From IMG/VR virus record IMGVR_UViG_3300045988_081205: DNA of 64,000 nucleotides; one strand, 5' to 3'. Shown here one piece after another: positions 2,815 through 64,000 of this stretch. The DNA is from a virus. Below the pieces are notes generated by a model, which saw only the letters and a program-made list of their open reading frames with translations, did not search any database and was not told the origin of the DNA. Made by a program: the position numbers and the translations under genes. Within the stretch, counting starts at the first letter, position 1. Every line of letters begins with the position of its first letter.

Positions 2815-2901
2815 GATAAGAAGTTGCAAATTCTTATCATTTGAAGGAAGGTTGCTCGTCTCGACCTTCCTTACTCTACAAATTAAATCTAAGACGAGGA
2901 G
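2815..2901 (+). promoter_or_regulatory. structured 5' leader of HNH gene 2
   Basis: Hairpin 1 at 2815-2838 (GATAAGAA/TTCTTATC). Hairpin 2 at 2844-2872 (AAGGAAGGT/ACCTTCCTT). Loop CTCGTCT (2855-2861) is complementary to AGACGAG (2892-2898), which overlaps the SD GAGGAG. Confidence 0.6.
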
Positions 2902-2909
2902 ATTTTATT

Positions 2910-3473
2910 ATGGAAGAAATTTGGAAACCAGTTAAAGTTAGGGGAGAAGATTTCACAGGATATTATGAAGTTAGCAATTTAGGAAGAATTAAAAAATTGT
3001 CAACATGGAGTTGTGACGGTAAAAGATTTCTAAAAGAGCGGATTATGAAACAAACTCTTGATAAGAAGGGTTATTTGACTGTAAATTTGCAAAAGGGAAG
3101 TCGCCGTTTTACTCGTATATTTGTGCATAGAATAGTAGCAGAGGCATTTATTCCTAATCCAAATGATCTACCTCAAGTTGGGCATAAAGACGATACGGTA
3201 TTAAAGACTAATAACTGTATTGAAAATCTTTATTGGACAACTAACAAAGAAAATGCAAATACAGAAGGAAGAAAACAAAGATTATCTATGTCTCATATGG
3301 GCGCAAAAAATCATGGTGCTAGAGCTGTGATATGTGAAGGCATTACATTTCCAACGATGTCCGATTGCGCTAAACATTATAATATATTTGTTCAAAATAT
3401 ATGTGCGTGGTTAAATGGGAGAGAAAAAATGCCAAACCTATGGATTCAAAGAGGACTAAAAAGAGTTGATTAA
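2910..3473 (+). CDS. free-standing HNH homing endonuclease (NUMOD4-like + HNH_3-like)
   Basis: MEEIWKPV...GYYEVSNLGRIKKL and VHRIVAEAFIPNP...GHKDD...NLYWTTNKEN. The ATG at 2910 is preferred over the track start 2841 because of the SD GAGGAG and the alignment with 152-826. Confidence 0.85.
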   Translation: MEEIWKPVKVRGEDFTGYYEVSNLGRIKKLSTWSCDGKRFLKERIMKQTLDKKGYLTVNLQKGSRRFTRIFVHRIVAEAFIPNPNDLPQVGHKDDTVLKTNNCIENLYWTTNKENANTEGRKQRLSMSHMGAKNHGARAVICEGITFPTMSDCAKHYNIFVQNICAWLNGREKMPNLWIQRGLKRVD

Positions 3474-12057: not shown

Positions 12058-15000
12058 ATGCAAACAGTAAAATTAACCCCAATGCGCATGATATTCAATA
12101 ACCCTGAATCCAATTTCTCAATTATATCATGCAGCACTAAGGATGAAACAATAGAAATCAACCCTCAATATGGCACAATCAGCCTAAAAGGAACTGGCAT
12201 TGCCGATCTGAAAATGGGGCAATCCATTGATTGTATCATAGAGCCATGTGTGGATGATAAATACAAATACAGCTATAAATTCATTGGCTTTGCTGGATTT
12301 GTAGCTAAAGATGGCAAATTCAACCTAACTGAAAAAGCCGAGCTACAGACATTGCGTAGTTTAATGACTAATGGGCAAGCTGAATCATGTCATGCCGCAT
12401 ATCCTCATTTTGTCAGTATGGTGCTGAATGGTGAAGCCGACAAGCTAGACTACAAAAAAATTCGTGGCGTAGGCAAGGTGTTATTGCCAAGATATATTGA
12501 TAAAATCAAGACGATCAACAAGCGTGTGGAATTTATGGGAGAAACATATGCTTGGGGCATTGAGCATGATGAGGATATAAACAAAATCGCCGCGGCATAT
12601 AAGAACGTATATGGATTCAGCCAAGATATAAATACCAATCCATATGCTATTATGATTAACTTGCTTGAATGGTCATTTGATAGAGCAGATAGGGTGATAA
12701 CTAAGAAAACAGCAAAATGGCTGGATAGCTATGAACGATGTGAGGCGGCTACTATCTATGCTCTAAAGCATAATGAGCTGGACGGCAATACAAGGATGCA
12801 AGCCAAGATGTTGTTTGATATGGTAAAGCGCAAAGCCCCTCAATGCGTTCATCATCTCCTCGATGTTGTGACGAAATCGGCGCAAGTACACTATGACGCT
12901 CCTAGCCAAAACACAGCTCTACAAGTCACATATAGTGCTGAACAGCATATTGCTGATGTTATCAAGAAAAAAATAGCCAATCCACATTACTATCCTATGG
13001 ATTGGCAGAAGTTTACAAGTGTAGACGGTTTAGAGCTGACTGATGAACAAACGCAGATTCTTGAAATGGCTTGTAAACAAGATGTTATGATGCTGACTGG
13101 TTCGGCTGGTTGTGTTGATTGCGATACTGAATTTTTTACTGGTACTGGTTGGAAGCGAATTGCGGATTATCAAGACGGCGACAGGGTGCTTCAGTACAAC
13201 GAGGACGGAACAGCAGAACTTGTAAATCCCATTGCTTATATCAAGAAGACATGCAATACGTTATGGCATTTTGAGACGCTTCGAGGATTAAATCAAACTG
13301 TCTGTGATGATCATAGAATTATATATGAAACAAGAGACGGTGTATTAAAAGAATGTAATATTGAACAACTAAAACAAATGCACTTACCGTCAACCAAGAA
13401 TTTCCAAGGGAGGTTTCTCACAACATTCAACCTTGGTGGTTCTGGTATAGATTTAAATGAATGGCAAATTCGTCTAATGTGCGCGGTTTTGGCAGATGGG
13501 CATTTCAACGCCGGTAATAAAAATAGCACAAGATGTACATTTCATATAAAAAAGCAACGTAAGAAAGATAGACTGATTTATCTTTTCAATAAAAATGGAC
13601 TTGAATATAAAGAACATGAAAGTACAGAAGAAGGATATACTGACTATCATGTGTATGTTCCAAGGAGAGAAAAGCAATTTACAGAGTATTGGTATGGGTG
13701 TTCTAATGAACAATTAAAGATAATTGTAGATGAGGTTGTTTATTGGGATGGATGTATAAGATACACAAAAAATAATACTAAGTATTTAACTTATTGTTCA
13801 TCTATAAAATCAGACGCAGATTTCATTCAATATGCAGCATCCGCGATTGGAATTAGAGCGTCTATAAGCACTTGTAATAGAATTGGTGAAATCAAGCATT
13901 TGAACGGGAAAGAATATATTAGAAAGACAAATGTATATACGGTTCATTTTTCCAACAGAACAAAAGTAGGATTGTGTTCAGATAATAGAAGTAAATGTAC
14001 TAAAACGCCCATAACTCAAGTGCCAACCACTGATGGATATAAATACTGCTTTACAGTACCATCACATATGCTCGTACTAAGAAGAAAAGATTGCATTTTC
14101 ATTACTGGCAACTGTGGCAAAACAACAAGTATGCAAGCACTTGTTAATATGCTAGATAGCAATGGGTACACATATACTCTACTTGCCCCGACAGGAATAT
14201 CTAGCAAAAAATTACGAGAAGCAACGCAAAAAGAAGCGTCCACCATCCATATGTTTTTAACCATGAGTGAGAACCTAGGAGATTATCTAATCATAGATGA
14301 AGCCAGTCAAATTAGCGTCCATTTGCTATCAATGCTATTTGATAAGGTAACAGACCGTACTAAGATAATCTTCATAGCCGACCCATCTCAGCTTGCATCT
14401 ATTGCTTGCGGCAACATTGTTGAGGATATGCTTGATAGCGGCATCGTGCCTGTATGTAACTTGACTAAGGTATTCAGATATAACACATCTGGCATTATTA
14501 CTATAGCTACTGATGTACGAAATGGAGTAAATGACCATCTGACAGATACTTTCACAGATTATAAGTTCATTGAAACTGATACATTAGTAATCAAGCAAAT
14601 TGAGCAAGAATATGCGCGGCTCTTAGCAGATGGATACAGTAAGGATGATGTGCTGATTCTATCTCCATTCAATAAGGGTGATGTTGGCTCATTGGCTATC
14701 AATGCGGCGATTCAAGCCAAATTCAATCCAAATGAATTAAGCAAGGTTGGGCATACTGTCAATGATGTACCTATATATTTCAAAGTTGGCGATAAGGTAA
14801 TCAATAAAAAGAATGAATATGCTATGCCGCTTGTTGATGATGATACGGCTTTTGTAGCAAATGGCGATATTGGCACAGTGATGGAAATTGTGCCTGATGA
14901 AAAAGAGCCATATATGATTGTGCGATATGATTGCGGCGATTGTATAGTAGATAAGGCGCATATCAAGAATACGCTACTTAGTTATTGTGTCAGCATCCAT

Positions 15001-15210
15001 TCAGCGCAAGGTAGCCAAGCAAAGGCTGTGATTGTAGTGATTGATAGAAGCCACGTAAGGATGCTATCGCGCAACTTGTGCTATACAGCGGTATCACGCG
15101 CACAAGAGCGGCTAATATTGATTGGAGATGAGGCGGCTATTCAAGATGGGCTAAAGGTGCAAGAGGAAAAGGAAAGGGATACTTATTTGCGATATTTTTT
15201 AATAAAATAA
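12058..15210 (+). CDS. RecD/Dda-like SF1 DNA helicase precursor containing an intein in the P-loop
   Basis: The Walker A motif is split as GSAG | intein | CGKTTS. C-terminal SIHSAQGSQ and YTAVSRAQERL helicase motifs. Confidence 0.8.
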   Translation: MQTVKLTPMRMIFNNPESNFSIISCSTKDETIEINPQYGTISLKGTGIADLKMGQSIDCIIEPCVDDKYKYSYKFIGFAGFVAKDGKFNLTEKAELQTLRSLMTNGQAESCHAAYPHFVSMVLNGEADKLDYKKIRGVGKVLLPRYIDKIKTINKRVEFMGETYAWGIEHDEDINKIAAAYKNVYGFSQDINTNPYAIMINLLEWSFDRADRVITKKTAKWLDSYERCEAATIYALKHNELDGNTRMQAKMLFDMVKRKAPQCVHHLLDVVTKSAQVHYDAPSQNTALQVTYSAEQHIADVIKKKIANPHYYPMDWQKFTSVDGLELTDEQTQILEMACKQDVMMLTGSAGCVDCDTEFFTGTGWKRIADYQDGDRVLQYNEDGTAELVNPIAYIKKTCNTLWHFETLRGLNQTVCDDHRIIYETRDGVLKECNIEQLKQMHLPSTKNFQGRFLTTFNLGGSGIDLNEWQIRLMCAVLADGHFNAGNKNSTRCTFHIKKQRKKDRLIYLFNKNGLEYKEHESTEEGYTDYHVYVPRREKQFTEYWYGCSNEQLKIIVDEVVYWDGCIRYTKNNTKYLTYCSSIKSDADFIQYAASAIGIRASISTCNRIGEIKHLNGKEYIRKTNVYTVHFSNRTKVGLCSDNRSKCTKTPITQVPTTDGYKYCFTVPSHMLVLRRKDCIFITGNCGKTTSMQALVNMLDSNGYTYTLLAPTGISSKKLREATQKEASTIHMFLTMSENLGDYLIIDEASQISVHLLSMLFDKVTDRTKIIFIADPSQLASIACGNIVEDMLDSGIVPVCNLTKVFRYNTSGIITIATDVRNGVNDHLTDTFTDYKFIETDTLVIKQIEQEYARLLADGYSKDDVLILSPFNKGDVGSLAINAAIQAKFNPNELSKVGHTVNDVPIYFKVGDKVINKKNEYAMPLVDDDTAFVANGDIGTVMEIVPDEKEPYMIVRYDCGDCIVDKAHIKNTLLSYCVSIHSAQGSQAKAVIVVIDRSHVRMLSRNLCYTAVSRAQERLILIGDEAAIQDGLKVQEEKERDTYLRYFLIK
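13111..14112 (+). mobile_element. intein (334 aa) with LAGLIDADG homing-endonuclease domain
   Basis: Starts CVDCDTEFF (block A-like) and ends FITGN followed by Cys +1. Internal LMCAVLADGHF and IVDEVVYWDGC LAGLIDADG-like motifs. Removal restores GSAGCGKTT. Confidence 0.8.
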
Positions 15211-49093: not shown

Positions 49094-50671
49094 TTATTCT
49101 AATGAATCTCGGCTTGCTTCGCCACTTTCGGTAAGTGATGTTTCTGACTGACGGGGTCTACCACCCTCGTTATCTGAGCCGCCCTTGGTTGTATTGGTAT
49201 TTTTCAAGAGCTGTGTATATTTATCAATCCAACCGGTATATTTACTTTCAGCCATCATTGCTTCAAATACTTGTGGTTGATAGCCCGATACAGATGCCCA
49301 TGTCTGCATAGGTAGAACAATGCCAGAATCAGCCATTTTTTTCACTTTATCAAATCGAGCTTCACGCTCAAATGGGTAGTTAGACCCGTCGAAGATAAAT
49401 TTCCACTTGTATTTCTTTGTTAGCTGATTGACATAAAATTCTAGGAAATTGCTAAACTGTGGATATAGCGGCTTCATAGTCTGGTACATGTCATTAAGTC
49501 CAGCCTCAATCTCAGCGTTGGACTGTCTATCAGAGCTATAAATAACACGGCTCACACCAGAACCAACACCAGCAGATGTAGCAAGTTGAGTTGAATACAT
49601 ATCTGTATTCTTATCCTCAAACTGGTAGAACTTAATATTTTCAAGCGGCATTGCGGCAAGTTTTGACAATGAGCCAAGACCAGCCTTTGCCTTCTGCATA
49701 AATCCACCTAGCGTCTTTGGGTCAATAGCAAACTGATTCGCTTTAGTACCAGATTTAGCCGAATCAAATAGACGAATTTCACCAGCTAGAATAGCATAGG
49801 CTGACGCAATATCCTTGTTATACTGCAACTGAGCAATATCATCATTAGCAATGGCATTCTTCAGAAATGGAGCTAAAAATGGCGTATTATTAAATGTGCT
49901 AGGATTCCACTTAAATACCCATGCACCATCACTAGGTGATGTTTGCGTCCACATAGCATATGCTCCATTGCGTCTATTTAGTGGGTTTGTAGGGCGATAA
50001 TTTTTGAACGCTTCTTCCTCAGAGCCAAATACGCGCTGATAATATTTCTTAAATGCTGGGTCAAACCCATTGATGTCTACACCAGCTTGCAGGAAATAGC
50101 TCATGTCAAAATCAAACAACATGCCCTTTTCCCAATATCCAGTAAGTAGACATCTATCTTGTGGCAAAATCTGTAGGGCGAATTTCATTCCTTTGTTGCC
50201 CCACTTCGTCTTTCTGAACCAAGTGAAATATGTTTCATGCGTCACAATCTGTGCTATAACTTTACCAAATTCGGCCTTATAATCAAATTTGTTCAAAAAA
50301 TCATATACGCGCCGCTTATCCTCTTGGTATGCGCTTGATTCATAATCACTCTGAGTAAAAGCATTGATACAAACAGGCTGTAGATCAAATGATAGAGCGT
50401 TACAATATGCTTGTAGAGTTCTGGCAAATATCATGTCCCAGAATTTCATATATTCCATATAGCCCTGAATTTGCTCTGAATTTTCCTTATATTCAGCAAG
50501 AGCCTTGCGGATTTTATCAGAGCTTGGGGTTTCTGGATTGTTGTTCAAACTCTGCAATAGTTGATTACTCAACATTGGTGACCAAAAGCCAAACTGGTCA
50601 TAAGCATATAACGCCTGTGCAAACTCTGTTACAGCTTGAGCCTGTTCAAATGTTACTAGCGGTTCTGCCAA
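49094..50671 (-). CDS. portal protein
   Basis: 525 aa. First large ORF after the large terminase. Acidic C-terminus. TTG start after AAGGAGGG. Confidence 0.6.
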   Translation of the reverse strand: MAEPLVTFEQAQAVTEFAQALYAYDQFGFWSPMLSNQLLQSLNNNPETPSSDKIRKALAEYKENSEQIQGYMEYMKFWDMIFARTLQAYCNALSFDLQPVCINAFTQSDYESSAYQEDKRRVYDFLNKFDYKAEFGKVIAQIVTHETYFTWFRKTKWGNKGMKFALQILPQDRCLLTGYWEKGMLFDFDMSYFLQAGVDINGFDPAFKKYYQRVFGSEEEAFKNYRPTNPLNRRNGAYAMWTQTSPSDGAWVFKWNPSTFNNTPFLAPFLKNAIANDDIAQLQYNKDIASAYAILAGEIRLFDSAKSGTKANQFAIDPKTLGGFMQKAKAGLGSLSKLAAMPLENIKFYQFEDKNTDMYSTQLATSAGVGSGVSRVIYSSDRQSNAEIEAGLNDMYQTMKPLYPQFSNFLEFYVNQLTKKYKWKFIFDGSNYPFEREARFDKVKKMADSGIVLPMQTWASVSGYQPQVFEAMMAESKYTGWIDKYTQLLKNTNTTKGGSDNEGGRPRQSETSLTESGEASRDSLE

Positions 50672-50913
50672 ATTTCGCCCTCCTTTCTTTATTTTATTGT
50701 TTATATATTAGAGCAGTTAGATTATGGACTTCATTAACGTATGCCAAAGTTCATTGAGCTACTTGTCCTCCCTATCCGCTCGTTTTATATTTTTGAGTGT
50801 TTTTGTTTTCAGCTTTTTGATTAAACCTAAGTTGGAACTTGGATTCCACACAACCCTAATAGCACCTCCACGGCAACATACCAACATAGCAGCCGCTTCA
50901 TAGGTAAGTCATA

Positions 50914-52758
50914 TCACCAGACAAGTTGAATAGAATCTATATCAAACTCATCTTCTTGTAACTGTTGCTGCCATGCGTTCTCAATTAAATCAATAATGTA
51001 ATTACCATACATAATGGTTACAATTCTATCCTTTGTGCCTGTGCGCGGTTCTTCTAGTTTAATTTTATCCTGCTTAATAACCGTCTTTAGATTAACAGCC
51101 TCTATAACCATCATATCAGTTTGACCATATGGCTCAAGCTGATTAGCTAATTCTTCAGCGGTATATTGATAATATTCACCGCTATCCGTTAGTTCGTTCT
51201 GATAATCTTGCATAGAAATAAGGAATTTCATATTGTTGGTTTCAAGTTGTTTACGCAATGATAACCAACCGCTACTGTTTAATTCAGGTGTGCCAATAAT
51301 CGGTATCAAACATGGTACAGCATTTTTATCAACTGTGCGGTTATGATAATCGTCTATCTTAGCTTTAGATACAACCTGATATTTATCAGCCAATCCAAAT
51401 CCGCGCGAATCCCATCTTGCGCCCAAATCGGGTCGTGGTAATGGTTCTGTAAGGTGGTTTGCTATTACCTCACCACCACTACGCGAATCGAATAGACAAT
51501 AATCTGCATCATATACCCATTTAAGGTATCTAAATCTATCAGATGCACCGATTGTATCAGATGCGTCATGACCCTCTATATAATCAACATGACGCTCGAA
51601 TCTATTCTTTTTACTGTCCCAATGAGCCGACATAAGAGTAATAATTGTATTATCGTTCTTTGTACAACCAGTGGTGTTTGCAAATGCCAAGTCCATTGAC
51701 AGTATGCGTATCTCATCCTCTTTCTTTTCTGGGAAATCAGGTTGTTCGCCAGCAAAGAATTGTAATGCAGTAGGTGGACGGAAACAATGCTCAATAATTT
51801 GGTTCTCTTTGAATGACTTTAGATTAAAGAACGCATCATCGCCCTCTGAAATCATCTCGTTCAAATCTTCCATTCTGAAGTCCATTTCGCCGCCAGCCTT
51901 ATCATTCCAATAGTCAGCCCATGTCTTAAACCCATTATCAATAACCATAAATATATCACCAGCAAAAATATTACATCTTACTTTGGTGTCGGTAAATATA
52001 CGAGTAAATGTCTTTTTGAACAATAGCCAGAACCACTCAAACTTATATCTGGCAGATGTGATATAGATATGTTGACATTCCTCTTTCCAACGAGGATTAT
52101 TACCATATACAGGGTTACTAAGATATTTGGCTTGTCTTGGATGCGCCATCTTCTCAAAGACGGAATCGACCATACCTTTTTTGAGCAAACGGGCTTCTTC
52201 GTATGTAAGAATTGTTGCTCTTGGCCCACGAGAGCTATCTTGGCATGGTAATACACGCAAAGTAGAACCGTTAAGCTTATTCTCTATTCTATAACCATCT
52301 TCTGGTTTAGTGATAACCAAATATTCGTGCTCATACATATATAAGAGATATGGCGATAATTTTTTAATCAATTCATCCCTTATTTTATCTTCAACCATCT
52401 TGTTCGCCTGTGCAACAGTTGATGATGTAATTACCGCCTCTGTATATGGATAAAGATTCATCTTTACAATATTACCTAGACCAACGATAAAAGTTTTAGA
52501 TAAGCCACGACAACATATTGCGAAGAACACATCTGATATGCCCATCAGATATATCATTATCATCTGAAATGGGCGCAACTTGATACCAAGAACTAAATCA
52601 ACATATATATGCCAATTTCGGCGTAACTAAAATAAAGTCAGCCACTCTATAGCATTTTCCTCTTTCTGCGCATCTTTCATTGCATTTTCTTTTGCTTTTG
52701 TTGTAATTAGGTGGTTTCCAAGGAACTTGCGTCTCAAGCCCCCCATCTGACTTTTCAT
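50914..52758 (-). CDS. terL: terminase large subunit, interrupted by one in-frame TAG (52627-52629)
   Basis: The segment YVDLVLGIKLRPFQ...CCRGLSKT (Walker A-like) ...ILTYEEA (Walker B-like) ...SMDLAFANT (nuclease Asp) contains no start codon between the TAG and the TTG at 52578. An ATG at 52758 with SD GGTGGTGA lies 43 codons upstream in the same frame. Confidence 0.7.
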
Positions 52759-52774
52759 TCTATATCACCACCTA

Positions 52775-53602
52775 TCATCTCTTTTGGTCTGAGGGCAAAT
52801 CTGGATATTCGCGCGTCCCCCCAACCAAATTCTTACAACATCTCAAAATATCTTTCCATGTCAGCTCAAATCCACTAAAATCCTTATACTTATTCAAGTC
52901 TTCACATTCACACGGTTTTGTATTCTCAATATTCCATGCCATGCGTTCTATGAATTTTCCAGTATCACTCTGCTTGTTTTCCTTAAATTGGTCTAGTTTT
53001 AGCACCTTCATCAATTTAAGAATTTCATCGCCAGCATCCTTATCTGTTGGGTCTTTGAACTTGCGTAGATTAGCTTGGCACAGATTTCTATACGTCATCT
53101 CTTTAGCTGTGTCCATATCAAGAATTTCGTCAGTGTATCGTTCAAATATATCATCAAGCCACTGATATTCCCATTCTTCATAATCAGCGCCCCACTGACG
53201 ATTCCATCTTGCTTTAAGCGCCACCTCATCTGTTTCTCCTTTAGCTACATCGCCCAAATCCTTGAAATTAGACAGCTCCATATCACTATCCCAAACGCCA
53301 GTTAATTTATCAGGAGATGTAGATAGATATGTATGATACAACATAAATAGACTAGGCTTTTTTCCCTTAGCCGCCTTTTCTAGCGTATCAAGACAAGCAG
53401 TATATTCAGCACGTCTCATAGGAATACCAGTCTGCATACAGGTTGACCATAATGCCGCGCCTTGATCTTTAGTGGATTCAAGAGCTTGTTTATATAGCTC
53501 AGTTACACATGATTTGCATGGTTTAATATATTCACCCGTTTTGATTGGGCTTTTATAGAATTGGCTATCTTGCTTTTCTTTGCCACAATATGGGCAAAAC
53601 AT
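52775..53602 (-). CDS. putative terminase small subunit / packaging-associated Zn-ribbon protein
   Basis: 275 aa with N-terminal CPYCG...CKSC. The functional call rests only on its position immediately upstream of terL. Confidence 0.3.
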   Translation of the reverse strand: MFCPYCGKEKQDSQFYKSPIKTGEYIKPCKSCVTELYKQALESTKDQGAALWSTCMQTGIPMRRAEYTACLDTLEKAAKGKKPSLFMLYHTYLSTSPDKLTGVWDSDMELSNFKDLGDVAKGETDEVALKARWNRQWGADYEEWEYQWLDDIFERYTDEILDMDTAKEMTYRNLCQANLRKFKDPTDKDAGDEILKLMKVLKLDQFKENKQSDTGKFIERMAWNIENTKPCECEDLNKYKDFSGFELTWKDILRCCKNLVGGTREYPDLPSDQKR

Positions 53603-54509
53603 ATTCTCATTCCTTTCCGTTCCGTTTATTTTCCTATAAATATGACGAAGCAGCCAAGATTGCTCTCGGCTGCTTCGTATTTGTTAAGGTTCAATATTCA
53701 ATTAAACAACAGTTCCCATTGAGTTGGGCTTATTGTAGATATGAGCCGATTGGCTCTGACCACCATCCTTTCTTTAATTATGCTTCGGATAAACCAGTGG
53801 ATAATTCAAGAGAATAGTGACCTCCTTTCGGATATTCATAGCCGCCAATGAGTAGTAGCGACAGGCAGTTTCAGTATATACCTAGATACAAACATTTCGT
53901 TAAAGCTCCATTTATAAAGCGCCATCGAGCATCTAGCGCCACTCACTGTTATGTTTTATTATTTTACAAATGCGACATATTCTTGCCGTGTCGCCGGGCG
54001 TTATGGTGCAATGGGTCTTAGATGCCATCACATCTCGCCTTTGCATCGTTCTAATGGCAATACGGTTTTCATTGTTGTCATATGGTATACCGCAAACCTT
54101 CGATTAACGTCCACATATTGCCGAAAGACAACCCGGTTCTATGCTTCATACGCTCGTATAACACACCTGTTGCTATACGCCTATCGTCTAGGATAGGATT
54201 TTGCAAGAGCCGCCATTAACGACTCCAAGAACTCCTTGCACGCATGGTACATGAGATGAATTGTCATATCTCACCACAGTATATGACGCGCTCGTATTAG
54301 GATCTGCTGAATTGCAGATTCACGGCGAAGATATTCAACTCTGCTAGGTGGGTCAATCGCCCCGCAAGCATGATTAACACAGCCATAGCTATCACCTAGC
54401 AGAGAATGAATCAATTTAAGGGTGGTAGCGCCATTTGCAACTGACGCTACCGATAAAATAAATTCTGTCGGATGACAGCGAAAAGCGTTCAGGCTTTTCC
54501 TCTAGTGTA
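53603..54509 (-). ncRNA. ORF-free, hairpin-dense ~0.9 kb island (candidate large structured RNA; strand uncertain)
   Basis: Stops are frequent in all six frames. Visibly richer in G+C than the flanks. At least 10 local 5-12 bp stems, e.g. 54339-54350/54393-54404 (12 bp), 54424-54430/54445-54451 (7 bp) and 53645-53655/53668-53678 (11 bp). Confidence 0.35.
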
Positions 54510-55694
54510 TTATAGATAAAATGTTTTACGCCATTCTGCCCCATCTTCTGAATACGTAGTAAACATACAAGACGGTCTTGATGCTTTACAAATAGACTTT
54601 GCAAATCCATCAACACCACATACAGAGCCAACGCGCCAACACAATTTATCGCCTAACTCAGTAATGCCAGCATTCTTCATTTCTTGTCGATGTAAATGTC
54701 CAACGTAACACTCATCAATGTCAATATTATATAAATTTTCAAAATACCGCATTGTCTCAGCTATATCACCGCCATCTCCATGATGAAACATGATTGCATT
54801 GTTTTTAATGTATTTAATAGCACAATCCGTATAATCATCAACTGTAATGCCATCTACCGACTTTAGCCGCTCTTGTAGATACCATACAATGATTTTCCCT
54901 AGATTTTCTTCTTCAAACTGTGGCTTAGATGTCAATGGGCGGCACACATCATGGTTACCACCAACCATCACCACATTAACAGGAATTTCAAGCCTGTCAT
55001 GTAACTCAACAAACCAATCAGCTAGATATTCAGACAACTTGATGACCGTATCAATGACTGGCTCTCTCAGCTTAGTCAGACTAGATGTGCGTAAAATATT
55101 CTCTACACAATCACCAAGCACAGCAACCGTAATATCATCAAGCCAGATACAATTGTCATCATTACACATCTTGTTAAGCAACCCATCAAGCCGCGCCCTC
55201 ATAATGTCAAAATCGTACTTGTTTACAATTTCATTATATGCGCCCTTGATTTCATAAGTTGAACCAGCATGAAGGTCAGAAATGCAAAGAAGTCCACTTA
55301 CATTCGTTTGTGGTAACTTGTTGAATTCGCGAATAGTAAACGGCTCAAGGTTCTTAATTGACTCAGCAATCTTTTCTTGAATCAAATCTGCTCTTGCATC
55401 AAGTCTCTGATTTTGAACATACTGTATGTTCTCACTCTGTAATTTCTTACGTTCTTTTTCTAATTCCTGTTTAGCCTCTCTTAACTGTGATAGAATACTA
55501 GCATCTTTTTCATCTGATTCACAATCATCTGCGCCATTTAGCATATTGCGGACAAATACAGCACAACGTCGTAAATATTCCTCCGACCAAACACCCCTAT
55601 AATCTTCACCAAGACAACGAGCCGTCCATTCCTGCAAGTCAATTAACTTGCTATCTAGCAGCTCAGTCGCTTGTCGTATCTTCTGTAGATTCAT
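54510..55694 (-). CDS. calcineurin-like metallophosphoesterase with N-terminal coiled coil
   Basis: Motifs ISDLHAG (DxH), VLGDCV (GD), GGNHD, FHHGDGGD and VGHLH. Confidence 0.7.
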   Translation of the reverse strand: MNLQKIRQATELLDSKLIDLQEWTARCLGEDYRGVWSEEYLRRCAVFVRNMLNGADDCESDEKDASILSQLREAKQELEKERKKLQSENIQYVQNQRLDARADLIQEKIAESIKNLEPFTIREFNKLPQTNVSGLLCISDLHAGSTYEIKGAYNEIVNKYDFDIMRARLDGLLNKMCNDDNCIWLDDITVAVLGDCVENILRTSSLTKLREPVIDTVIKLSEYLADWFVELHDRLEIPVNVVMVGGNHDVCRPLTSKPQFEEENLGKIIVWYLQERLKSVDGITVDDYTDCAIKYIKNNAIMFHHGDGGDIAETMRYFENLYNIDIDECYVGHLHRQEMKNAGITELGDKLCWRVGSVCGVDGFAKSICKASRPSCMFTTYSEDGAEWRKTFYL

Positions 55695-56226
55695 TCAATT
55701 TCTGTTCCTTTTCCTTCTTTTTCCGTTCATAATCTTCTTTTTTCTTGTTGATTACATTGATAAAATCATCATAGCTCTGTTGCTTTGCTTGCTCAATGCG
55801 GTCATCTTGCATTTGCTTCAATGTTCGTTTTGCCGTTCGTTCCATTTCAGCCTGAGTTATCAGTTTGAGATCATTTGGTGTCAACTTACGCTCACGAACA
55901 CGCTTGCGATATCTTTTTGTAACCCCTCGTCCATTGACGTTATTGATGAAATCATCATTGCTTTTATATGTAATTTTGAACCACGCCGGGATTGTTCTCT
56001 CTACGAGCTCGCCATTATCATCTTTTGCCATTCCAGTCCAAGACGGCACTTCTTTTAACTCAAATGTTCCAACTCCGGGCATTTGACATCTTCCATCAAA
56101 ATGCAACATATGGACAATAGTATCGACACATGCTTGCCAATATTTTTTTACTGTCTCTGGTTTAGATTCAAGCAAACTAGCCGCATATTCATAAAATTGC
56201 TGATTCAACTTATTATGTTCAGCCAT
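55663..56226 (-). CDS. HU/IHF-like DNA-binding protein with long charged C-terminal extension
   Basis: MPGVGTFELKEV...beta-arm...FKITYKS resembles the HU fold core. About 90 aa of Lys/Glu-rich tail. Confidence 0.5.
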   Translation of the reverse strand: MAEHNKLNQQFYEYAASLLESKPETVKKYWQACVDTIVHMLHFDGRCQMPGVGTFELKEVPSWTGMAKDDNGELVERTIPAWFKITYKSNDDFINNVNGRGVTKRYRKRVRERKLTPNDLKLITQAEMERTAKRTLKQMQDDRIEQAKQQSYDDFINVINKKKEDYERKKKEKEQKLNESTEDTTSD

Positions 56227-56638
56227 CTTCTTCTTCCTTCATAAACTTGGGATTATCAGGATAATTCTCCAATACCCAAGCATCATATTCCTCTTTGGTT
56301 GCGCCTTTCCCATACAACGTACCAGCTTTTACATAACTCGCCATATGTTTCTCAGCCTTAAATTCTAATCGATAATAGCCCTGTCTGTCTGGATAGTACA
56401 TACGCCGCTTTTGAAAGCCATTCCAATATTCACCAGCTGGACGAGGGGGATAATCGCGGAATGTAATAACACCAATATCTGGCAATGAATATTCCACGCC
56501 ATGCTGTAGTGTCTCGCGGATGATATCGTGATAGTTTCTTAACACTAACTCAATAATCTTAGAATCAACGCCTGTACGCCGTCGTAGCTCTTTACTCATG
56601 TCGGCTTTGCCTAGCCTAGGATATTTGTTTTTATGCAA
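56219..56638 (-). CDS. HU/IHF-like DNA-binding protein
   Basis: MSKELRRRTGVDSKIIELVLRNYHDIIRETLQHGVEYSLPDIGVITF...RLEFKAEK matches the HU-family helix-helix-beta-arm pattern. Confidence 0.6.
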   Translation of the reverse strand: MHKNKYPRLGKADMSKELRRRTGVDSKIIELVLRNYHDIIRETLQHGVEYSLPDIGVITFRDYPPRPAGEYWNGFQKRRMYYPDRQGYYRLEFKAEKHMASYVKAGTLYGKGATKEEYDAWVLENYPDNPKFMKEEEDG

Positions 56639-56707: not shown

Positions 56708-59296
56708 CTACTGTTTTAACATATCCCCCGTGCGGACAGGTGGGGCTTCACGTGATTCAGTACGCCGCTGATTATCTGCCTTCTTGTAACATTCCTCTGA
56801 GCAGTAATGTTGACATACATCTCGCGGCTTAAACCGCTTGCCACAAATGGAGCAGATTGGATTAAGTTGCGCCGTATTGATTCTCAAATTCTCTACAATC
56901 GTCCAACCAAAACAAGCCCACAACATTTTCTTATTGCTTGATTTTTTGACAGTATATAGATAAGCCACCAAGCTATTTACCACAACATCTAGCGGCTCGT
57001 TGCTATATTCCACTATATCTTGTGCAATGCGGCGATATTTATATAAATCGTCTTCATTGATATGCGGGTCATCGCCATAGTCAAATCGGCGCTGATTCCA
57101 CATCCACCAATTATACCTCTCTATGATTGGGGAATTTTCTCTAGTTGTATAATCAACTGATTTATTTATCAACATCGTCCAGTCGAATTTCCCAATCTTG
57201 TTATTATAGCGAATTCGGGAAGTAGGGATTTTAGCCGATATACGATTCATCGTGGAATTGTTTGGAGGCTCTACTTGTGTATCTGGGTCTTTGTCTTTAG
57301 CATAGATGAAAAAGTTGGGTAATTTTGATTTAGTATATTTTTTAATAATATCAGCAATTTCTTTTGGAGGTTCACTTTTCCACAACGTTTTCGCAAAATC
57401 AATAATTTGATTGTTCTTCATTGTGAGCCAAGCAATAACTCTAATTTGCTCCTCAGTCATTTTACCGCCATTGGCGTTTTTTACCTTCGATATAGAGTTA
57501 CTTATCGGGCCAATCGACCCACCTGTATATGCGGTGCTTACGCCTTCATACAATCTATCCGCATCAATAATACCCCCACGAGCCTTTTTTAAGTCATATG
57601 ACAACGGCACAATTCCTTGCATATTACGCTTCGCTACGGTTGTTAGTGTTCTATCTTTTACAACCAAACTAATATCCCCATCAAAATCTTGCTGCAATAT
57701 ACGGCTAATCATATCGTGACAACTGAAGTAAACGCATTTTGTTCCGCCTAACCATTTATCGGTTAGTTCATTCCGCTTGTTAATTCTAACTGCGTGTTCT
57801 TGATACAAGTGTGGACTTCTCAAACAATCAAGCTCATCGCCATCTTTGAATTGATTGGTGTAAACCTCTCCATTCTCAAGTATGCCGATTGGGAATTGCT
57901 CACCTTTGAACAACCACTCACAAAATGCCACAGGGTCAGGAGAAATAAACAGATATTTACCGTTAATTCTCAATCTGCCGCCTCTTGCTTGCTTTACCAA
58001 GCTTTTTTTTGTTTGTTTCAACAACTCCCGGTTATACGCATCTTTGAATAATTCTGGATATATTGTCAACGCTTCTTGCATGGCTGATTTTGTTTGATTG
58101 TATTCAGTCGCGCCTAATAGTCTCATAGTAGTTTGATAGTCTCTCCCGACGCTATCAATTTCATCTGCTGTCTTGGCAATAAGCCGCTCAATCTCATTGT
58201 CTGTCATATCACTTAAAGATTGAAGCATCTGATAATTGATTCGCGCTTTTGGTATATAATCTTCCTCAACTTTGCAACAACCAAAGTAACAACCATAACT
58301 TTTGAAATTAGACTTGTAACACAACCAAGATGGATAAAACTTATACAGCTTGAACATTGACTTCGTTAGGATATACTGAATATCATCCTCAAGAATCTTC
58401 CATTCTTTACCATATATATCAGTTACAGCCCAATCGTCAGCGGTGAAATATTCTTTGAGCCATCCTCTAAAGTCGAAATAAGATACCAATCCTTTTATCC
58501 ACGGCGCTCGAACAATTTGTGTCTTAAATCCGGGCTTACAACACATACCCCAGCCATCTGTCTCAGCTATAATCGTCTCAGACGTTTTTCGCGTAATGCT
58601 GTAATCTGTACAATCAATAAAATCTGATTCAGCTATAACCGGCATTTCAAAATCATCAACTACAATACAGCGATCTATATCAAAGTTCTCAATTCTGTCG
58701 GTTGCAGACGCCATAAGACTCTTATAACTCAATAGCTTGTTTTCATTCATGCCGCCCAGCGCATTGATTGAATCAATGGTCAGTCCGCACATAAGAGTTT
58801 GCTCAACAGCTAAATAATCTTTTTCGCAAACGGCCATAAATCGCTTTGTGCGTATCATGCCCGCTCCACATGAATAGAAAATGTAATGTTCACCATTGTA
58901 ATTAAACCCGTTGTGAATAATGCTGTTTAGCACTTCAAAAAAGAACACATTGACAATGATGATTTTGTCACTTCGCTCAAATGTCTTAATGCCAAGACTA
59001 CGAGTCAATTCAGAGCAGAACAGGTTAATAATTGTCTTGTCTGTTACCGCATCTGGATTGAGTTCTCTTGTAATATTATCCTCAAGCGATTTTCTCAGCA
59101 ACTCAACAAGTTCATCTTTATGCTTCTTGATAACACGGTTAATTGATGAAACGCGCCATTTTCGATTTTGACCATCCTTCTCGCGCATTCTCAAGGCATA
59201 TAGCTTGACAAGTCGATTATGTATTGCTTGTTCCTTCGGCGTATAAAAAGCATCTGTTGCTACAGAAGGTATATAACAGAACTCTGTCAATGGCAC
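56708..59296 (-). CDS. YonO-like single-polypeptide RNA polymerase candidate (two double-psi beta-barrel type)
   Basis: RSPHLY (57806-57820 encodes RSPHL) followed ~40 aa later by DFDGD (57674-57688), the beta-prime-type Mg-binding signature. An upstream RAPWIKGLVS (58490-58510 encodes RAPWIKG) resembles the beta-type barrel. C-terminal Zn ribbon. GTG start. Confidence 0.6.
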   Translation of the reverse strand: MPLTEFCYIPSVATDAFYTPKEQAIHNRLVKLYALRMREKDGQNRKWRVSSINRVIKKHKDELVELLRKSLEDNITRELNPDAVTDKTIINLFCSELTRSLGIKTFERSDKIIIVNVFFFEVLNSIIHNGFNYNGEHYIFYSCGAGMIRTKRFMAVCEKDYLAVEQTLMCGLTIDSINALGGMNENKLLSYKSLMASATDRIENFDIDRCIVVDDFEMPVIAESDFIDCTDYSITRKTSETIIAETDGWGMCCKPGFKTQIVRAPWIKGLVSYFDFRGWLKEYFTADDWAVTDIYGKEWKILEDDIQYILTKSMFKLYKFYPSWLCYKSNFKSYGCYFGCCKVEEDYIPKARINYQMLQSLSDMTDNEIERLIAKTADEIDSVGRDYQTTMRLLGATEYNQTKSAMQEALTIYPELFKDAYNRELLKQTKKSLVKQARGGRLRINGKYLFISPDPVAFCEWLFKGEQFPIGILENGEVYTNQFKDGDELDCLRSPHLYQEHAVRINKRNELTDKWLGGTKCVYFSCHDMISRILQQDFDGDISLVVKDRTLTTVAKRNMQGIVPLSYDLKKARGGIIDADRLYEGVSTAYTGGSIGPISNSISKVKNANGGKMTEEQIRVIAWLTMKNNQIIDFAKTLWKSEPPKEIADIIKKYTKSKLPNFFIYAKDKDPDTQVEPPNNSTMNRISAKIPTSRIRYNNKIGKFDWTMLINKSVDYTTRENSPIIERYNWWMWNQRRFDYGDDPHINEDDLYKYRRIAQDIVEYSNEPLDVVVNSLVAYLYTVKKSSNKKMLWACFGWTIVENLRINTAQLNPICSICGKRFKPRDVCQHYCSEECYKKADNQRRTESREAPPVRTGDMLKQ

Positions 59297-59440
59297 TTAA
59301 TCAATCACCTCTAATTCATTCTCTGAACTACCATATATCCAAAGCGCCCAATCACGCTCAGTTGGCTCATATTCATCATCCCATACTTCTGGCTCTATAT
59401 CTTCTGATACATACCAGTTATAGCTCATTTCGCTCCACAA
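59297..59440 (-). CDS. small acidic protein (47 aa) translationally coupled to the RNAP-like gene
   Basis: TTG start 8 nt after AAGGAGGTGG. Its TAA is immediately followed by the GTG of the 862-aa ORF. Confidence 0.4.
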   Translation of the reverse strand: MWSEMSYNWYVSEDIEPEVWDDEYEPTERDWALWIYGSSENELEVID

Positions 59441-59469
59441 TTTCTTACCACCTCCTTGAGCTTAATGCT

Positions 59470-59498
59470 ATTATATCATATAATTGATTATTTGTCAA
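59470..59498 (-). promoter_or_regulatory. sigma-A-type promoter driving the leftward RNAP operon (proximal)
   Basis: On the - strand: TTGACA (59498-59493), 17-nt spacer, TGaTATAAT (59478-59470). Confidence 0.7.
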
Positions 59499-59513
59499 TA
59501 CTAAAATTTCTAC

Positions 59514-59542
59514 TTGACAAAAATTGATTGATGTGATATAAT
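59514..59542 (+). promoter_or_regulatory. sigma-A-type rightward promoter (upstream copy)
   Basis: TTGACA 59514-59519, 17-nt spacer, TGaTATAAT ending at 59542. No ORF follows for ~260 nt. Confidence 0.65.
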
Positions 59543-59562
59543 CTCTTATAAATTATAAATAT

Positions 59563-59591
59563 ATTATACCATATATTACAGTATTTGTCAA
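59563..59591 (-). promoter_or_regulatory. sigma-A-type leftward promoter (distal), face to face with the promoter at 59514
   Basis: On the - strand: TTGACA (59591-59586), 17-nt spacer, TGgTATAAT (59571-59563). Confidence 0.65.
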
Positions 59592-59675
59592 TAGTTAATT
59601 TATTCATAATTTATTAACATATAATTCATAATACTGTAATATTTATATGATATAATATCTAGTATATATAATTAC

Positions 59676-59721
59676 AATTTAACTATTATCTACTCATAAA
59701 TTCGTAGATAATAGTTAAATT
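59676..59721. repeat. 18-bp perfect inverted repeat
   Basis: AATTTAACTATTATCTAC (59676-59693) / GTAGATAATAGTTAAATT (59704-59721), 10-nt loop. Confidence 0.8.
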
Positions 59722-59753
59722 GATGTGAAAAATCAATTTATCAAAAATTATAC

Positions 59754-59782
59754 TTGACAAGTGCAAAATGATGTGATATAAT
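59754..59782 (+). promoter_or_regulatory. sigma-A-type promoter of the right-hand early block
   Basis: TTGACA 59754-59759, 17-nt spacer, TGaTATAAT ending at 59782. Confidence 0.75.
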
Positions 59783-59802
59783 CATTGTATGAGGTGAGAT
59801 AA

Positions 59803-60018
59803 ATGAAAATGAATTGTATGTATTGCACAAAAGGATACCATTTGCCACTGCAAAGCGAATATAGCGGCATAGAAGCTGGATTTATCAACGACAATGGATT
59901 GCTTCGTATTCGAGCATTTGACGAAAATGATGACTTACAAACTCAAGATATTGTCAGTTTGAATTATTGCCCAATGTGCGGAAGGAAATTACGTAATGCC
60001 AAGAACAAAGAAAATTAA
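59803..60018 (+). CDS. hypothetical Zn-ribbon protein
   Basis: 71 aa. CMYC...CPMCG. Confidence 0.55.
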   Translation: MKMNCMYCTKGYHLPLQSEYSGIEAGFINDNGLLRIRAFDENDDLQTQDIVSLNYCPMCGRKLRNAKNKEN

Positions 60019-60226
60019 CGCAGTAGTGCAATATGGCGATACTGACTGGATTATCAATGATTGCGGCAATGGACAATTCGAGCTATATAATATCAACACA
60101 AAGCAGATTTTAGCAAAGAGCAATAATCCACTAGATTTTGATAAGCATATAGACAAGATTTTTGGCAAGGAGGCGGCTAGACGTGTTCGAGATTTTCAAG
60201 CTAAACAAGAAGAAGAAAGCGCTTGA
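59996..60226 (+). CDS. hypothetical protein
   Basis: 76-aa ORF. Confidence 0.5.
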   Translation: MPRTKKINAVVQYGDTDWIINDCGNGQFELYNINTKQILAKSNNPLDFDKHIDKIFGKEAARRVRDFQAKQEEESA

Positions 60227-63881: not shown

Positions 63882-64000
63882 ATGGCAACAAAACGAGTAT
63901 GTGACCGCTGCGGGGCGGAGATAAACCCCACAAGCTCTGCGACGTATGTAAACGTACGAAGCGCGTTCCATGAGGAATCACCTGATATTGAGCTTTGCTG
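63882..64000 (+). CDS. hypothetical Zn-ribbon protein, 5' partial (runs off the window)
   Basis: ATG after GGAGGA. CDRCG. Open to the end of the window. Confidence 0.45.
   Translation, partial: MATKRVCDRCGAEINPTSSATYVNVRSAFHEESPDIELC

Follow-up and report, generated by a model that had tools for sequence, protein, structure and literature searches.

What is encoded in a gap of 907 nt that opens between two late genes of a phage and holds no long reading frame? The question is raised by IMG/VR virus record IMGVR_UViG_3300045988_081205, from which a stretch of 64,000 nt (the window) was analyzed. The gap lies at 53603-54509, between the stop codon of a YonJ-like Metallophos exonuclease open reading frame (ORF; 54510-55694, - strand) and the start of a YonG-like ORF (52775-53602, - strand, 275 aa) located directly 3' of it. 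From comparison of related loci, we conclude that the gap very probably encodes, on the - strand, about ten small RNA modules that fold independently and are packed closely into an array. We further propose, more tentatively, that these RNAs may act as decoys for host nucleases. One of the modules is a copy of drum RNA (RF02958), which in bacteria mostly stands in front of a gene for a predicted endoribonuclease (endoRNase), PBECR4 (PF18813).

An earlier note on this stretch had described the gap as the largest non-coding stretch, broken by stops in every frame and enriched in G+C. Each of these descriptions holds, the first by a narrow margin (907 nt versus 865 nt at 59297-60161). No ORF in the gap exceeds 81 aa (the two longest, of 81 and 57 aa, are both on the + strand), and the G+C enrichment is real yet modest (0.429 versus 0.389 for the window, the 94th percentile among 907-nt windows). 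The stems that the note named were also found, at 53645-53678 (15 pairs), 54339-54404 (12 of 12 pairs), and 54424-54451. The minimum free energy of the - strand of the gap was -291 kcal/mol, compared with -239 ± 6 kcal/mol for dinucleotide shuffles (z -8.24), and the + strand gave z -3.62 with the same type of shuffle. Among the controls, z was -1.98 and -0.38 for coding neighbours of the same size and -2.25 for the other large non-coding stretch. The structure in the gap is beyond chance and strand-specific, and because G-U pairs are common throughout, it is assigned to RNA of the - strand and not to duplex DNA. The note's claim of a structured non-coding RNA on the - strand is borne out by the z of this strand and by the covariation in modules B and G described below.

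Cassette turnover among related phages

Many relatives of the phage, about 50-100 kb in size and from human gut samples, are present in IMG/VR, Logan, and ENA, and 27 of them, with YonG 68-99% identical, were used as close relatives. BLASTN of the gap against these 27 revealed sharp, recurring breakpoints, and a block map and indel list showed that blocks of 40-220 nt are independently present or absent. The length of the yonJ-yonG gap varies from 258 to 1216 nt in the close relatives and from 243 to 515 nt in four more distant phages. When each block was probed separately, 24 cassette architectures were distinguished in 36 loci of related gut phages. The only constant part is module H, which makes up the last 234 nt; everything else is dispensable in close relatives, and the two shortest arrays (258-261 nt) consist of H alone. 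Since modules are deleted and inserted independently and no long-range architecture is kept, the gap is very unlikely to be one RNA.

Phages with YonG only 39-52% identical carry recognizable copies of the same cassettes with different stem sequences, and one cassette, which the window lacks, shows 97.8% identity between phages that share about 50% identity in YonG. The latter cassette, of about 45 nt (UUCCCAACAUAGCGCCAUGCGUGGGUG..GGCGC), resembles an H-type pseudoknot; it was seen in the arrays of eight relatives and had no exact match in GTDB genomes. An RNA of a known family, DUF3800-VIII (RF03075, 46-54 bits), is an extra cassette inside the orthologous array of five relatives (L001, L003, L004, L007, and L009). 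The window gave no covariance-model match to DUF3800-VIII, and an Rfam scan of eight diverse arrays at E≤1 returned no other family. Tandem repeats were absent from 53500-54600 by TRF, the only direct repeat being one 10-nt pair. Homing-endonuclease genes of the HNH or NUMOD4 type have inserted themselves 3' of yonJ, at the 5' edge of the array, in two relatives (L009 2623-3123; L026 2872-3669).

Modules of the array and covariation of their stems

Alignment of distinct copies from the related phages points to covarying stems in modules B, G, F1, and H3 and in P2 of the drum RNA, the kind of evidence that the earlier note had proposed to seek among homologues. This covariation contradicts the note's alternative of a decayed gene. 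Rfam contained no match to B, C, D, F1, G, or H3. All modules are on the - strand and are given in its direction.

Module B (54331-54410) is an 80-nt three-way-junction motif, the sole copy in the window, with the layout UUCAWUC, P1 (12 bp), an optional hairpin P2, P3 (7 bp), P1', and GUUGAAUAU; P3 closes the invariant loop AUGCUUGYGGGGC (54359-54371). In 20 distinct copies from phages with YonG 39-100% identical, 94.9% of cells were paired, compared with 30-44% when the partners were slid. Twelve pairs changed on both sides, none of 500 shuffles reached the real value, and many pairs are G-U. A simple B-type hairpin stands directly after the yonJ stop in distant phages. A GCTTGYGRGG match at 63926 was considered as a second B copy and rejected, as it belongs to a terminator-like hairpin on the + strand.

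Module G (53837-53954) is a pseudoknotted motif of 118 nt. It consists of an outer stem P0, a hairpin Pa, WUAUAAAY, a variable middle, and a 3' hairpin CGCUACUAMUCA..GCG, and the pseudoknot pairs the 5' strand AGUGAGU with the 3'-hairpin loop ACUCAUU. Because MAFFT misaligned the variable middle, the 5' and 3' parts were joined for the count. For the pseudoknot, Pa, and the 3' hairpin, 94.1% of cells were paired compared with 32-60% after sliding; five pairs changed on both sides, none of 500 shuffles reached the real value, and G-U pairs were frequent. The G covariation comes from few independent lineages.

Modules F1 and H3 each show four or five different, complementary versions of one stem. 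F1 (54005-54047) is arranged as P1, AGGCGAG/UUGAGC, a hairpin, CUAAGACC, and P1'; its 11 distinct copies include five versions of P1, all of them complementary (UGCAA/UUGCA, GGCUA/UAGCC, CUCAUG/CAUGAG, CUCCUAC/GUAGGAG, and GCGCUUAC/GUAGGCGC). H3 (53694-53740, AAUCUAC-stem-..UGAAUAU) covaries as ACAAUA/UGUUGU, ACCGCA/UGCGGU, and CUGGCA/UGCCGG. It is part of module H (53603-53836), which is constant in every close relative and also contains a long, G-U-rich hairpin H1 (53758-53822), a hairpin H2 (53743-53756), a terminator-like terminal hairpin of 15 bp (53645-53678) 40 nt before the yonG start, and the ribosome-binding site (RBS) of the yonG-like gene (53603-53618). H1 also holds a UUG-started mini-ORF of 11 codons (MNYPLVYPKHN) after AGGAGG. 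Its frame and stop are kept in distant phages (MHYPLVKPKYN in L055; MHPLTVDIVEA in L051), and it could be a leader peptide or chance.

The evidence for C and D is weaker and consists of scattered compensatory changes or conservation in distant phages. Module C (54258-54330) is a 73-nt block that is missing from most close relatives; it comprises a hairpin at 54302-54319, the conserved CCUAAUACGAG (54291-54301), and a hairpin at 54263-54287, and its compensatory changes are CUGC/GCAG to CCAC/GUGG and GACAU/AUGUC to GACGU/ACGUC. Module D (54196-54257) is a two-hairpin motif of about 60 nt, AUCUC-GUGUACCAUGCGUAC-AAGGAG...GCAAAA, present in 21 of the 36 loci, including three distant phages (nhmmer E 2e-6 to 9e-6). 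Module A (54411-54509), with hairpins A1 (54480-54499), A2 (54465-54478), and A3 (54424-54451), was found in 17 of the 36 loci and is elsewhere lost as a block (positions 1-99). A2 is followed by AAUUUAUUUUAU and is terminator-like for the upstream yonJ-like gene (terminator scan match at 54478-54465); it shows a compensatory change from CUGUC/GACAG to CCGUC/GACGG. Module F2 (53972-53995), a hairpin GGCGACA..UGUCGC followed by AUUUGUAAAAUAAUAAAA, is a weak internal terminator-like element present in 6 of the 36 loci.

Copies of drum RNA in the phage

The array copy of drum (54058-54154, - strand) is a variant without the inner 3' hairpin. It aligned to the full model (1-112) with 39.9 bits and E 1.2e-5, against a gathering score of 43. 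Copies at the orthologous array position reached 43.3-44.9 bits in five relatives and 38.2-39.8 bits in others. Among 14 distinct copies, P1 is kept, P2 changes from C-G to U-A in five copies and from G-C to C-G in five copies, P3 covaries between two variants of the 3' half, and the conserved junction bases align to the model. Module E0 (54155-54198, - strand), with two hairpins at 54180-54197 and 54155-54179, accompanied drum in all 23 of 23 loci.

A second copy, which is canonical, is located at 50792-50906 (- strand) between the terL-like stop and the portal gene. It scored 54.2 bits (gathering score 43) and is the only Rfam match in the whole window at gathering thresholds; it starts 7 nt after the terL-like stop codon and was conserved at the same spot in the relatives scanned. 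No terminator was detected within 120 nt 3' of either window copy. With hmmsearch, PBECR4 gave no match at E≤10 in any of the six frames, either of the window or of the phage loci L001-L089. DUF3800 likewise gave no match among the 79 window ORFs (for the + strand ORFs, among the best 25 of 49 Pfam families). TGnTAT-like elements adjoin both drum copies and were considered as a promoter for each, but this was rejected because transcription would start inside P1.

drum, terminator, and PBECR4 in bacteria

The partner of drum was derived here by searching a drum-core pattern over GTDB genomes, clustering the neighbouring ORFs, and then running a profile search. The pattern gave 81 matches in GTDB, mostly in Lachnospiraceae, Blautia, Dorea, Faecalibacterium, Enterocloster, and other Clostridia. 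The dominant family of neighbouring ORFs, on the same strand, immediately 3', and about 200-240 aa long, is Pfam PBECR4 (E 5e-37). By profile search, a PBECR4 ORF was found just 3' of the drum core in 54 of 80 loci, and in 52 of these 54 a perfect-stem intrinsic terminator, followed by an RBS, separates the two (for example L146 4612-4644 and L128 4971-5003, among the GTDB contigs L090-L169). Eight of 13 IMG/VR matches show the same layout. ORF clustering gave no other conserved neighbour of the drum-core matches, and blastn found none of the phage cassettes in the bacterial drum loci.

PBECR proteins are predicted to be endoRNases of the BECR fold, and tRNA or rRNA is often the substrate of the characterized members of that fold (PMC5512222). 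A search by sequence for relatives of PBECR4 with a solved structure returned chance-level matches only. The bacterial arrangement has a ToxIN-like layout of RNA, intrinsic terminator, and predicted endoRNase, and no description of this layout was found in the literature searched.

Module G and other cassettes outside the array

The G pattern was found in 99 metagenome stretches, and 58 matches carried the 5' signature of the motif. Half of these 58 copies are upstream of yonG, as in the window. The other 29 copies, outside the yonG context, are on contigs of which 23 carry tRNA genes, and in 21 a same-strand tRNA follows the motif at a distance of 11-19 nt, or of about 100 nt with a skipping-rope RNA in between. 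RAGATH-33 RNAs and a DUF2828/DUF7788 gene are located in or near these G-bearing tRNA arrays. Eight gut contigs of 140-165 kb carry G inside long tRNA arrays. Modules B, D, and F1 and the pseudoknot-like cassette, also looked for in the tRNA-array contigs, were seen in the yonG context alone.

Transcription signals

A cassette of 98 nt, pointing into the array, follows the yonJ stop at a distance of 3 nt in 15 of the 27 close relatives. It contains a perfect (12/12) TTGACA-17-TATAAT promoter with an upstream TG (for example L003 2853-2881), and 3' of the promoter there is a small structured RNA in which GGCUUGGGGAUGC is similar to the module B loop. This cassette is missing in the window phage and in L001. 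Inside the window array, a sigma-70-like promoter candidate is present in the 3' half of B (54328-54356, - strand, TTGACC-17-TATCTT, 9/12), which is a consensus match and not functional evidence; the same site reads TTGACC-17-TATAAT (11/12) in relatives. At the other end of the array, the 15-bp hairpin is replaced in L023 by a different hairpin with a good U tail.

Judged by these signals, the arrays of the relatives, bracketed by a sigma-A promoter and a terminator-like hairpin, have the look of an accessory operon of non-coding RNAs that host RNA polymerase (RNAP) could read. The bracketing is weaker in the window phage, where only the 9/12 internal promoter is left. Because the promoter cassette is missing, the window array would be expressed from the weak internal promoter or by read-through from yonJ. 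A YonO-type polymerase might pass through these hairpins, and yonG could then be expressed through the array.

Proposed function as nuclease decoys

In 2017, drum, skipping-rope, and the DUF3800 motifs were presented as sophisticated folds, unrelated to each other and ending in terminators, for which a single function in common with the proteins encoded next to them was presumed (PMC5737381). DUF3800-VIII RNAs are found together with DUF3800 proteins. These proteins adopt an RNase-H fold, have been connected with defence systems, and serve in type VII retrons as an accessory protein or domain (PMC10910872, PMC13594972, PMC7736814). In type III toxin-antitoxin (TA) loci, an antitoxin RNA, a terminator, and an endoRNase follow in this order, and a phage pseudo-ToxI escapes them (PMC5086642). 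RNA anti-CRISPRs (Racrs) provide a precedent for RNA mimicry by phages (PMC10651486).

We propose that the array RNAs act in trans as orphan, antitoxin-like decoys. drum would be an RNA antitoxin or inhibitor of PBECR4, which it precedes in gut Firmicutes and in prophages, and the phage copies would be mimics that disarm resident PBECR4; the DUF3800-VIII copies of the relatives would disarm DUF3800 likewise. On infection, the mimic RNAs would flood the cell and would bind and silence resident nucleases of the host or its prophages, as pseudo-ToxI does with ToxN. The remaining cassettes would do the same for other nucleases, and cassette turnover would reflect an arms race that follows the nuclease repertoire of the hosts. 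The mechanism is borrowed from type III TA systems because the bacterial drum loci have the RNA-terminator-RNase order; membership in that type is not claimed. The countered nucleases may be tRNA-directed, because other phages have G within their tRNA arrays and tRNAs are frequent targets of BECR RNases.

Several points weigh against this proposal. The window phage lacks the consensus promoter cassette, and its array copy of drum is below the Rfam threshold and without the inner hairpin. PBECR4 is a putative toxin, and its family is missing from PADLOC. The analysis revealed no nuclease that would pair with B, C, D, F1, or G, and the discrete small RNA species are themselves predicted. drum is a single fold of about 100 nt, unlike the tandem repeats of known type III antitoxins, and might instead work in cis on PBECR4, as a leader or riboswitch. 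Finally, the phage genome is roughly 90 kb long, of which about 26 kb is beyond the window, and a partner gene could be located there.

With these points taken into account, an anti-defence function of the array RNAs, suggested by their genomic company, is possible and is put forward tentatively. The anatomy and the anti-defence function taken together appear to us evenly balanced between right and wrong. A further generalization, in which the locus would be an "RNA anti-defence island", that is, a promoter-to-terminator operon collecting, shuffling, and exchanging the orphan RNA partners of many host or prophage nuclease systems, is speculative and on the unlikely side. In such an island, drum would answer to PBECR4, DUF3800-VIII to DUF3800, and B, C, D, F1, and G to further partners.

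The unrelated folds are interchangeable at one locus, as are at least four motifs that have support from covariation and no match in Rfam, which argues for a shared kind of job. PBECR4, a predicted RNase behind a terminator, is a concrete and testable partner for drum, and from the orphan phage copies, an RNA-based counter-defence is predicted whose cassette content tracks host nuclease repertoires. As far as the literature searched shows, the new elements are a single phage locus at which a mixed array of such RNAs is shuffled, the motifs B, F1, and G together with the less supported C and D, and the drum-terminator-PBECR4 layout; drum itself and the idea of phage RNA mimicry were already known. 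If the island were real, it would be to RNA what anti-defence gene clusters are to proteins and would define an RNA-only class of phage anti-defence locus. If the assignment of drum were true, drum-PBECR4 would be a new RNA-antitoxin (type III-like) abortive-infection class, a TA/abortive-infection family widespread in gut Clostridia and in human-gut Firmicutes. The guild of drum, skipping-rope, and DUF3800 motifs would then be antitoxin or inhibitor RNAs, and there would be a reason for non-tRNA RNAs within phage tRNA arrays. If the anatomy alone holds, B, G, and F1 are well-supported new motifs for Rfam-type curation.

Alternative explanations

The alternative that survives best, although we consider it unlikely for the array as a whole, is a cis-acting leader of the packaging/structural operon, which would provide processing or stability sites, attenuators, anti-terminators, or a promoter region of a YonO-type RNAP for yonG, terL, and portal. 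The flanking genes are all co-oriented, H is constant, is the sole remnant in the shortest arrays, and ends in a terminator-like hairpin at 40 nt from the yonG start, and in distant phages the simple B-type hairpin comes immediately after the yonJ stop. However, everything 5' of H is dispensable in close relatives, drum and G are found in unrelated contexts, many relatives have a host-type consensus promoter before the array, and a role in cis gives no explanation for near-identical cassettes exchanged between distant phages. The late-promoter or leader region that the earlier note had considered may hold for the constant module H and not for the dispensable cassettes. The cis-leader reading may well apply to H alone, and for the simple B hairpin it is plausible.

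Slightly less likely still, in our judgment, is that the array encodes small RNAs for phage translation or tRNA economy and not anti-defence decoys. They would be the non-tRNA members of tRNA-type arrays, for example acting as processing punctuation, as modulators of tRNA modification or of the ribosome, or as RNAs with TROVE-like protein partners. This would fit the 21 of 29 G copies outside the yonG context that precede a same-strand tRNA, the position of G beside skipping-rope and RAGATH-33 RNAs, the DUF2828/DUF7788 gene near some arrays, and the likewise tRNA-adjacent GOLLD and ROOL (PMC5737381). However, drum is tied to an RNase gene and not to tRNAs, and no tRNA genes are located in or near the array: ARAGORN found none in the window, where tmRNA genes were also absent, and Rfam found no tRNA in the window or in 16 relatives. 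Phage tRNA arrays have themselves been discussed as counter-defence, and because of this the tRNA-economy and decoy readings overlap.

A DNA-level pac/cos packaging signal with protein-binding palindromes, an alternative also raised by the earlier note, is very improbable. The position at the head of the packaging genes, the HU-like ORFs upstream (55663-56638), and several perfect inverted repeats would suit such a signal. However, many stem pairs are G-U and would become A-C mismatches in the complementary strand, the two strands fold very unequally, and the content is variable and largely dispensable. In SPβ phages, packaging starts between yonR and yonP, next to yonO (bioRxiv 10.1101/2021.11.22.469490), and the analogous place here is 59297-60161. 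By this analogy, 59297-60161 is a better candidate than the array for a packaging start or an early control region. This AT-rich, ORF-poor stretch upstream of the YonO-like gene contains a 19-bp perfect palindrome and two consensus-like sigma-A promoters.

A single large ornate RNA of the GOLLD/ROOL class, the idea favoured by the earlier note, or else a self-splicing intron, fits the size, structure density, phage location, and z of -8.2, but is the least probable of all: both strands of 53300-54800 gave no GOLLD, ROOL, or group I/II intron match at E≤10, drum being the sole Rfam family matched there, the modules are present or absent independently without a kept long-range architecture, relatives have internal promoters and terminator-like hairpins, and the flanking ORFs are complete genes, not split exons.

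Gene context of the locus

The host of the array is an SPβ-like gut phage that encodes a YonO-type RNAP. The gene order is that of the late module of Bacillus phage SPβ, with the YonO-type RNAP (56708-59296) first, then two HU-like genes (55663-56638), the yonJ-like gene, the array, the yonG-like gene, a terL-like gene (50914-52578), and a portal gene (49094-50671). Pfam searches with homologues of the flanking proteins returned YonG_N, YonJ_CC, and RdRP-like (YonO), and TerL_ATPase weakly. No nucleotide-level match was found among cultured phages (blastn, distant mode, INPHARED). By protein, the nearest phages are those of Enterocloster bolteae (97-107 kb, 35% identity) and Thomasclavelia, with 25-35% identity overall, and the existing annotation of their corresponding region is uninformative.

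Elsewhere in the window, a RecD/UvrD-like helicase ORF of 1050 aa (12058-15210, + strand) has an apparently interrupted Walker A motif (..LTGSAG, then CVDCDTEFF...HN, then CGKTT..), which, read from the translation only, suggests an intein. The window contains several HNH/NUMOD4 paralogues (152-826, 2841-3473), and a distant relative (L055 1502-1772) shows a group I intron match of 49.7 bits (gathering 50) at or near the end of its YonO-like RNAP gene.

Comparison with known systems

Both drum copies of the window align with RF02958 over the full model, with the P1, P2, and P3 helices and the conserved junction bases. They differ from most bacterial drum-core matches in lacking the 3' terminator and PBECR4 that follow there, and the array copy is one cassette among many unrelated ones.

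The bacterial drum loci share the order of RNA, Rho-independent terminator, and predicted endoRNase with type III TA systems (ToxIN, AbiQ, CptIN). However, drum has a single complex fold in contrast to the tandem 34-36-nt repeats of known antitoxins, and PBECR4 is assigned to the BECR fold and not the ToxN/AbiQ fold, its toxicity, RNA processing, and binding being putative. Like ToxIN-escape phages with their ToxI mimics, the phage has only the RNA (PMC5086642). Unlike such a phage with its one mimic, it combines many unrelated RNAs in an array, and this array has no tandem repeats and no RNase gene following it.

The phage tRNA arrays that contain skipping-rope (RF02924) and RAGATH-33 (RF03102) are similar in their head-to-tail small RNA genes on one strand and their cassette-like turnover. 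Module G is common to both kinds of array, and GOLLD and ROOL occupy a similar niche; in contrast, the window has no tRNA gene at all. GOLLD (RF01998) and ROOL (RF03087) are located in phages or prophages, often beside tRNAs; the array is also in a phage, no tRNA was found in the window, and G is present in tRNA arrays of other phage-like contigs. They differ in size, as the window modules are 40-120 nt compared with 500-800 nt, and the array matches neither model and is not inherited as a unit.

Racrs (PMC10651486) and viral crRNA-like or sgRNA-like decoys share the concept of a phage RNA that copies the RNA partner of a defence protein. The array differs from them in having no CRISPR repeats, and its presumed targets are the RNase toxins PBECR4 and DUF3800, not Cas. 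The DUF3800 motifs I-XI (PMC5737381) differ in that the window has no DUF3800-VIII copy and that no DUF3800 protein was found in the phage ORFs searched. They are nevertheless alike in comprising many unrelated folds presumed to do one job, and DUF3800-VIII swaps in at this very locus in relatives.

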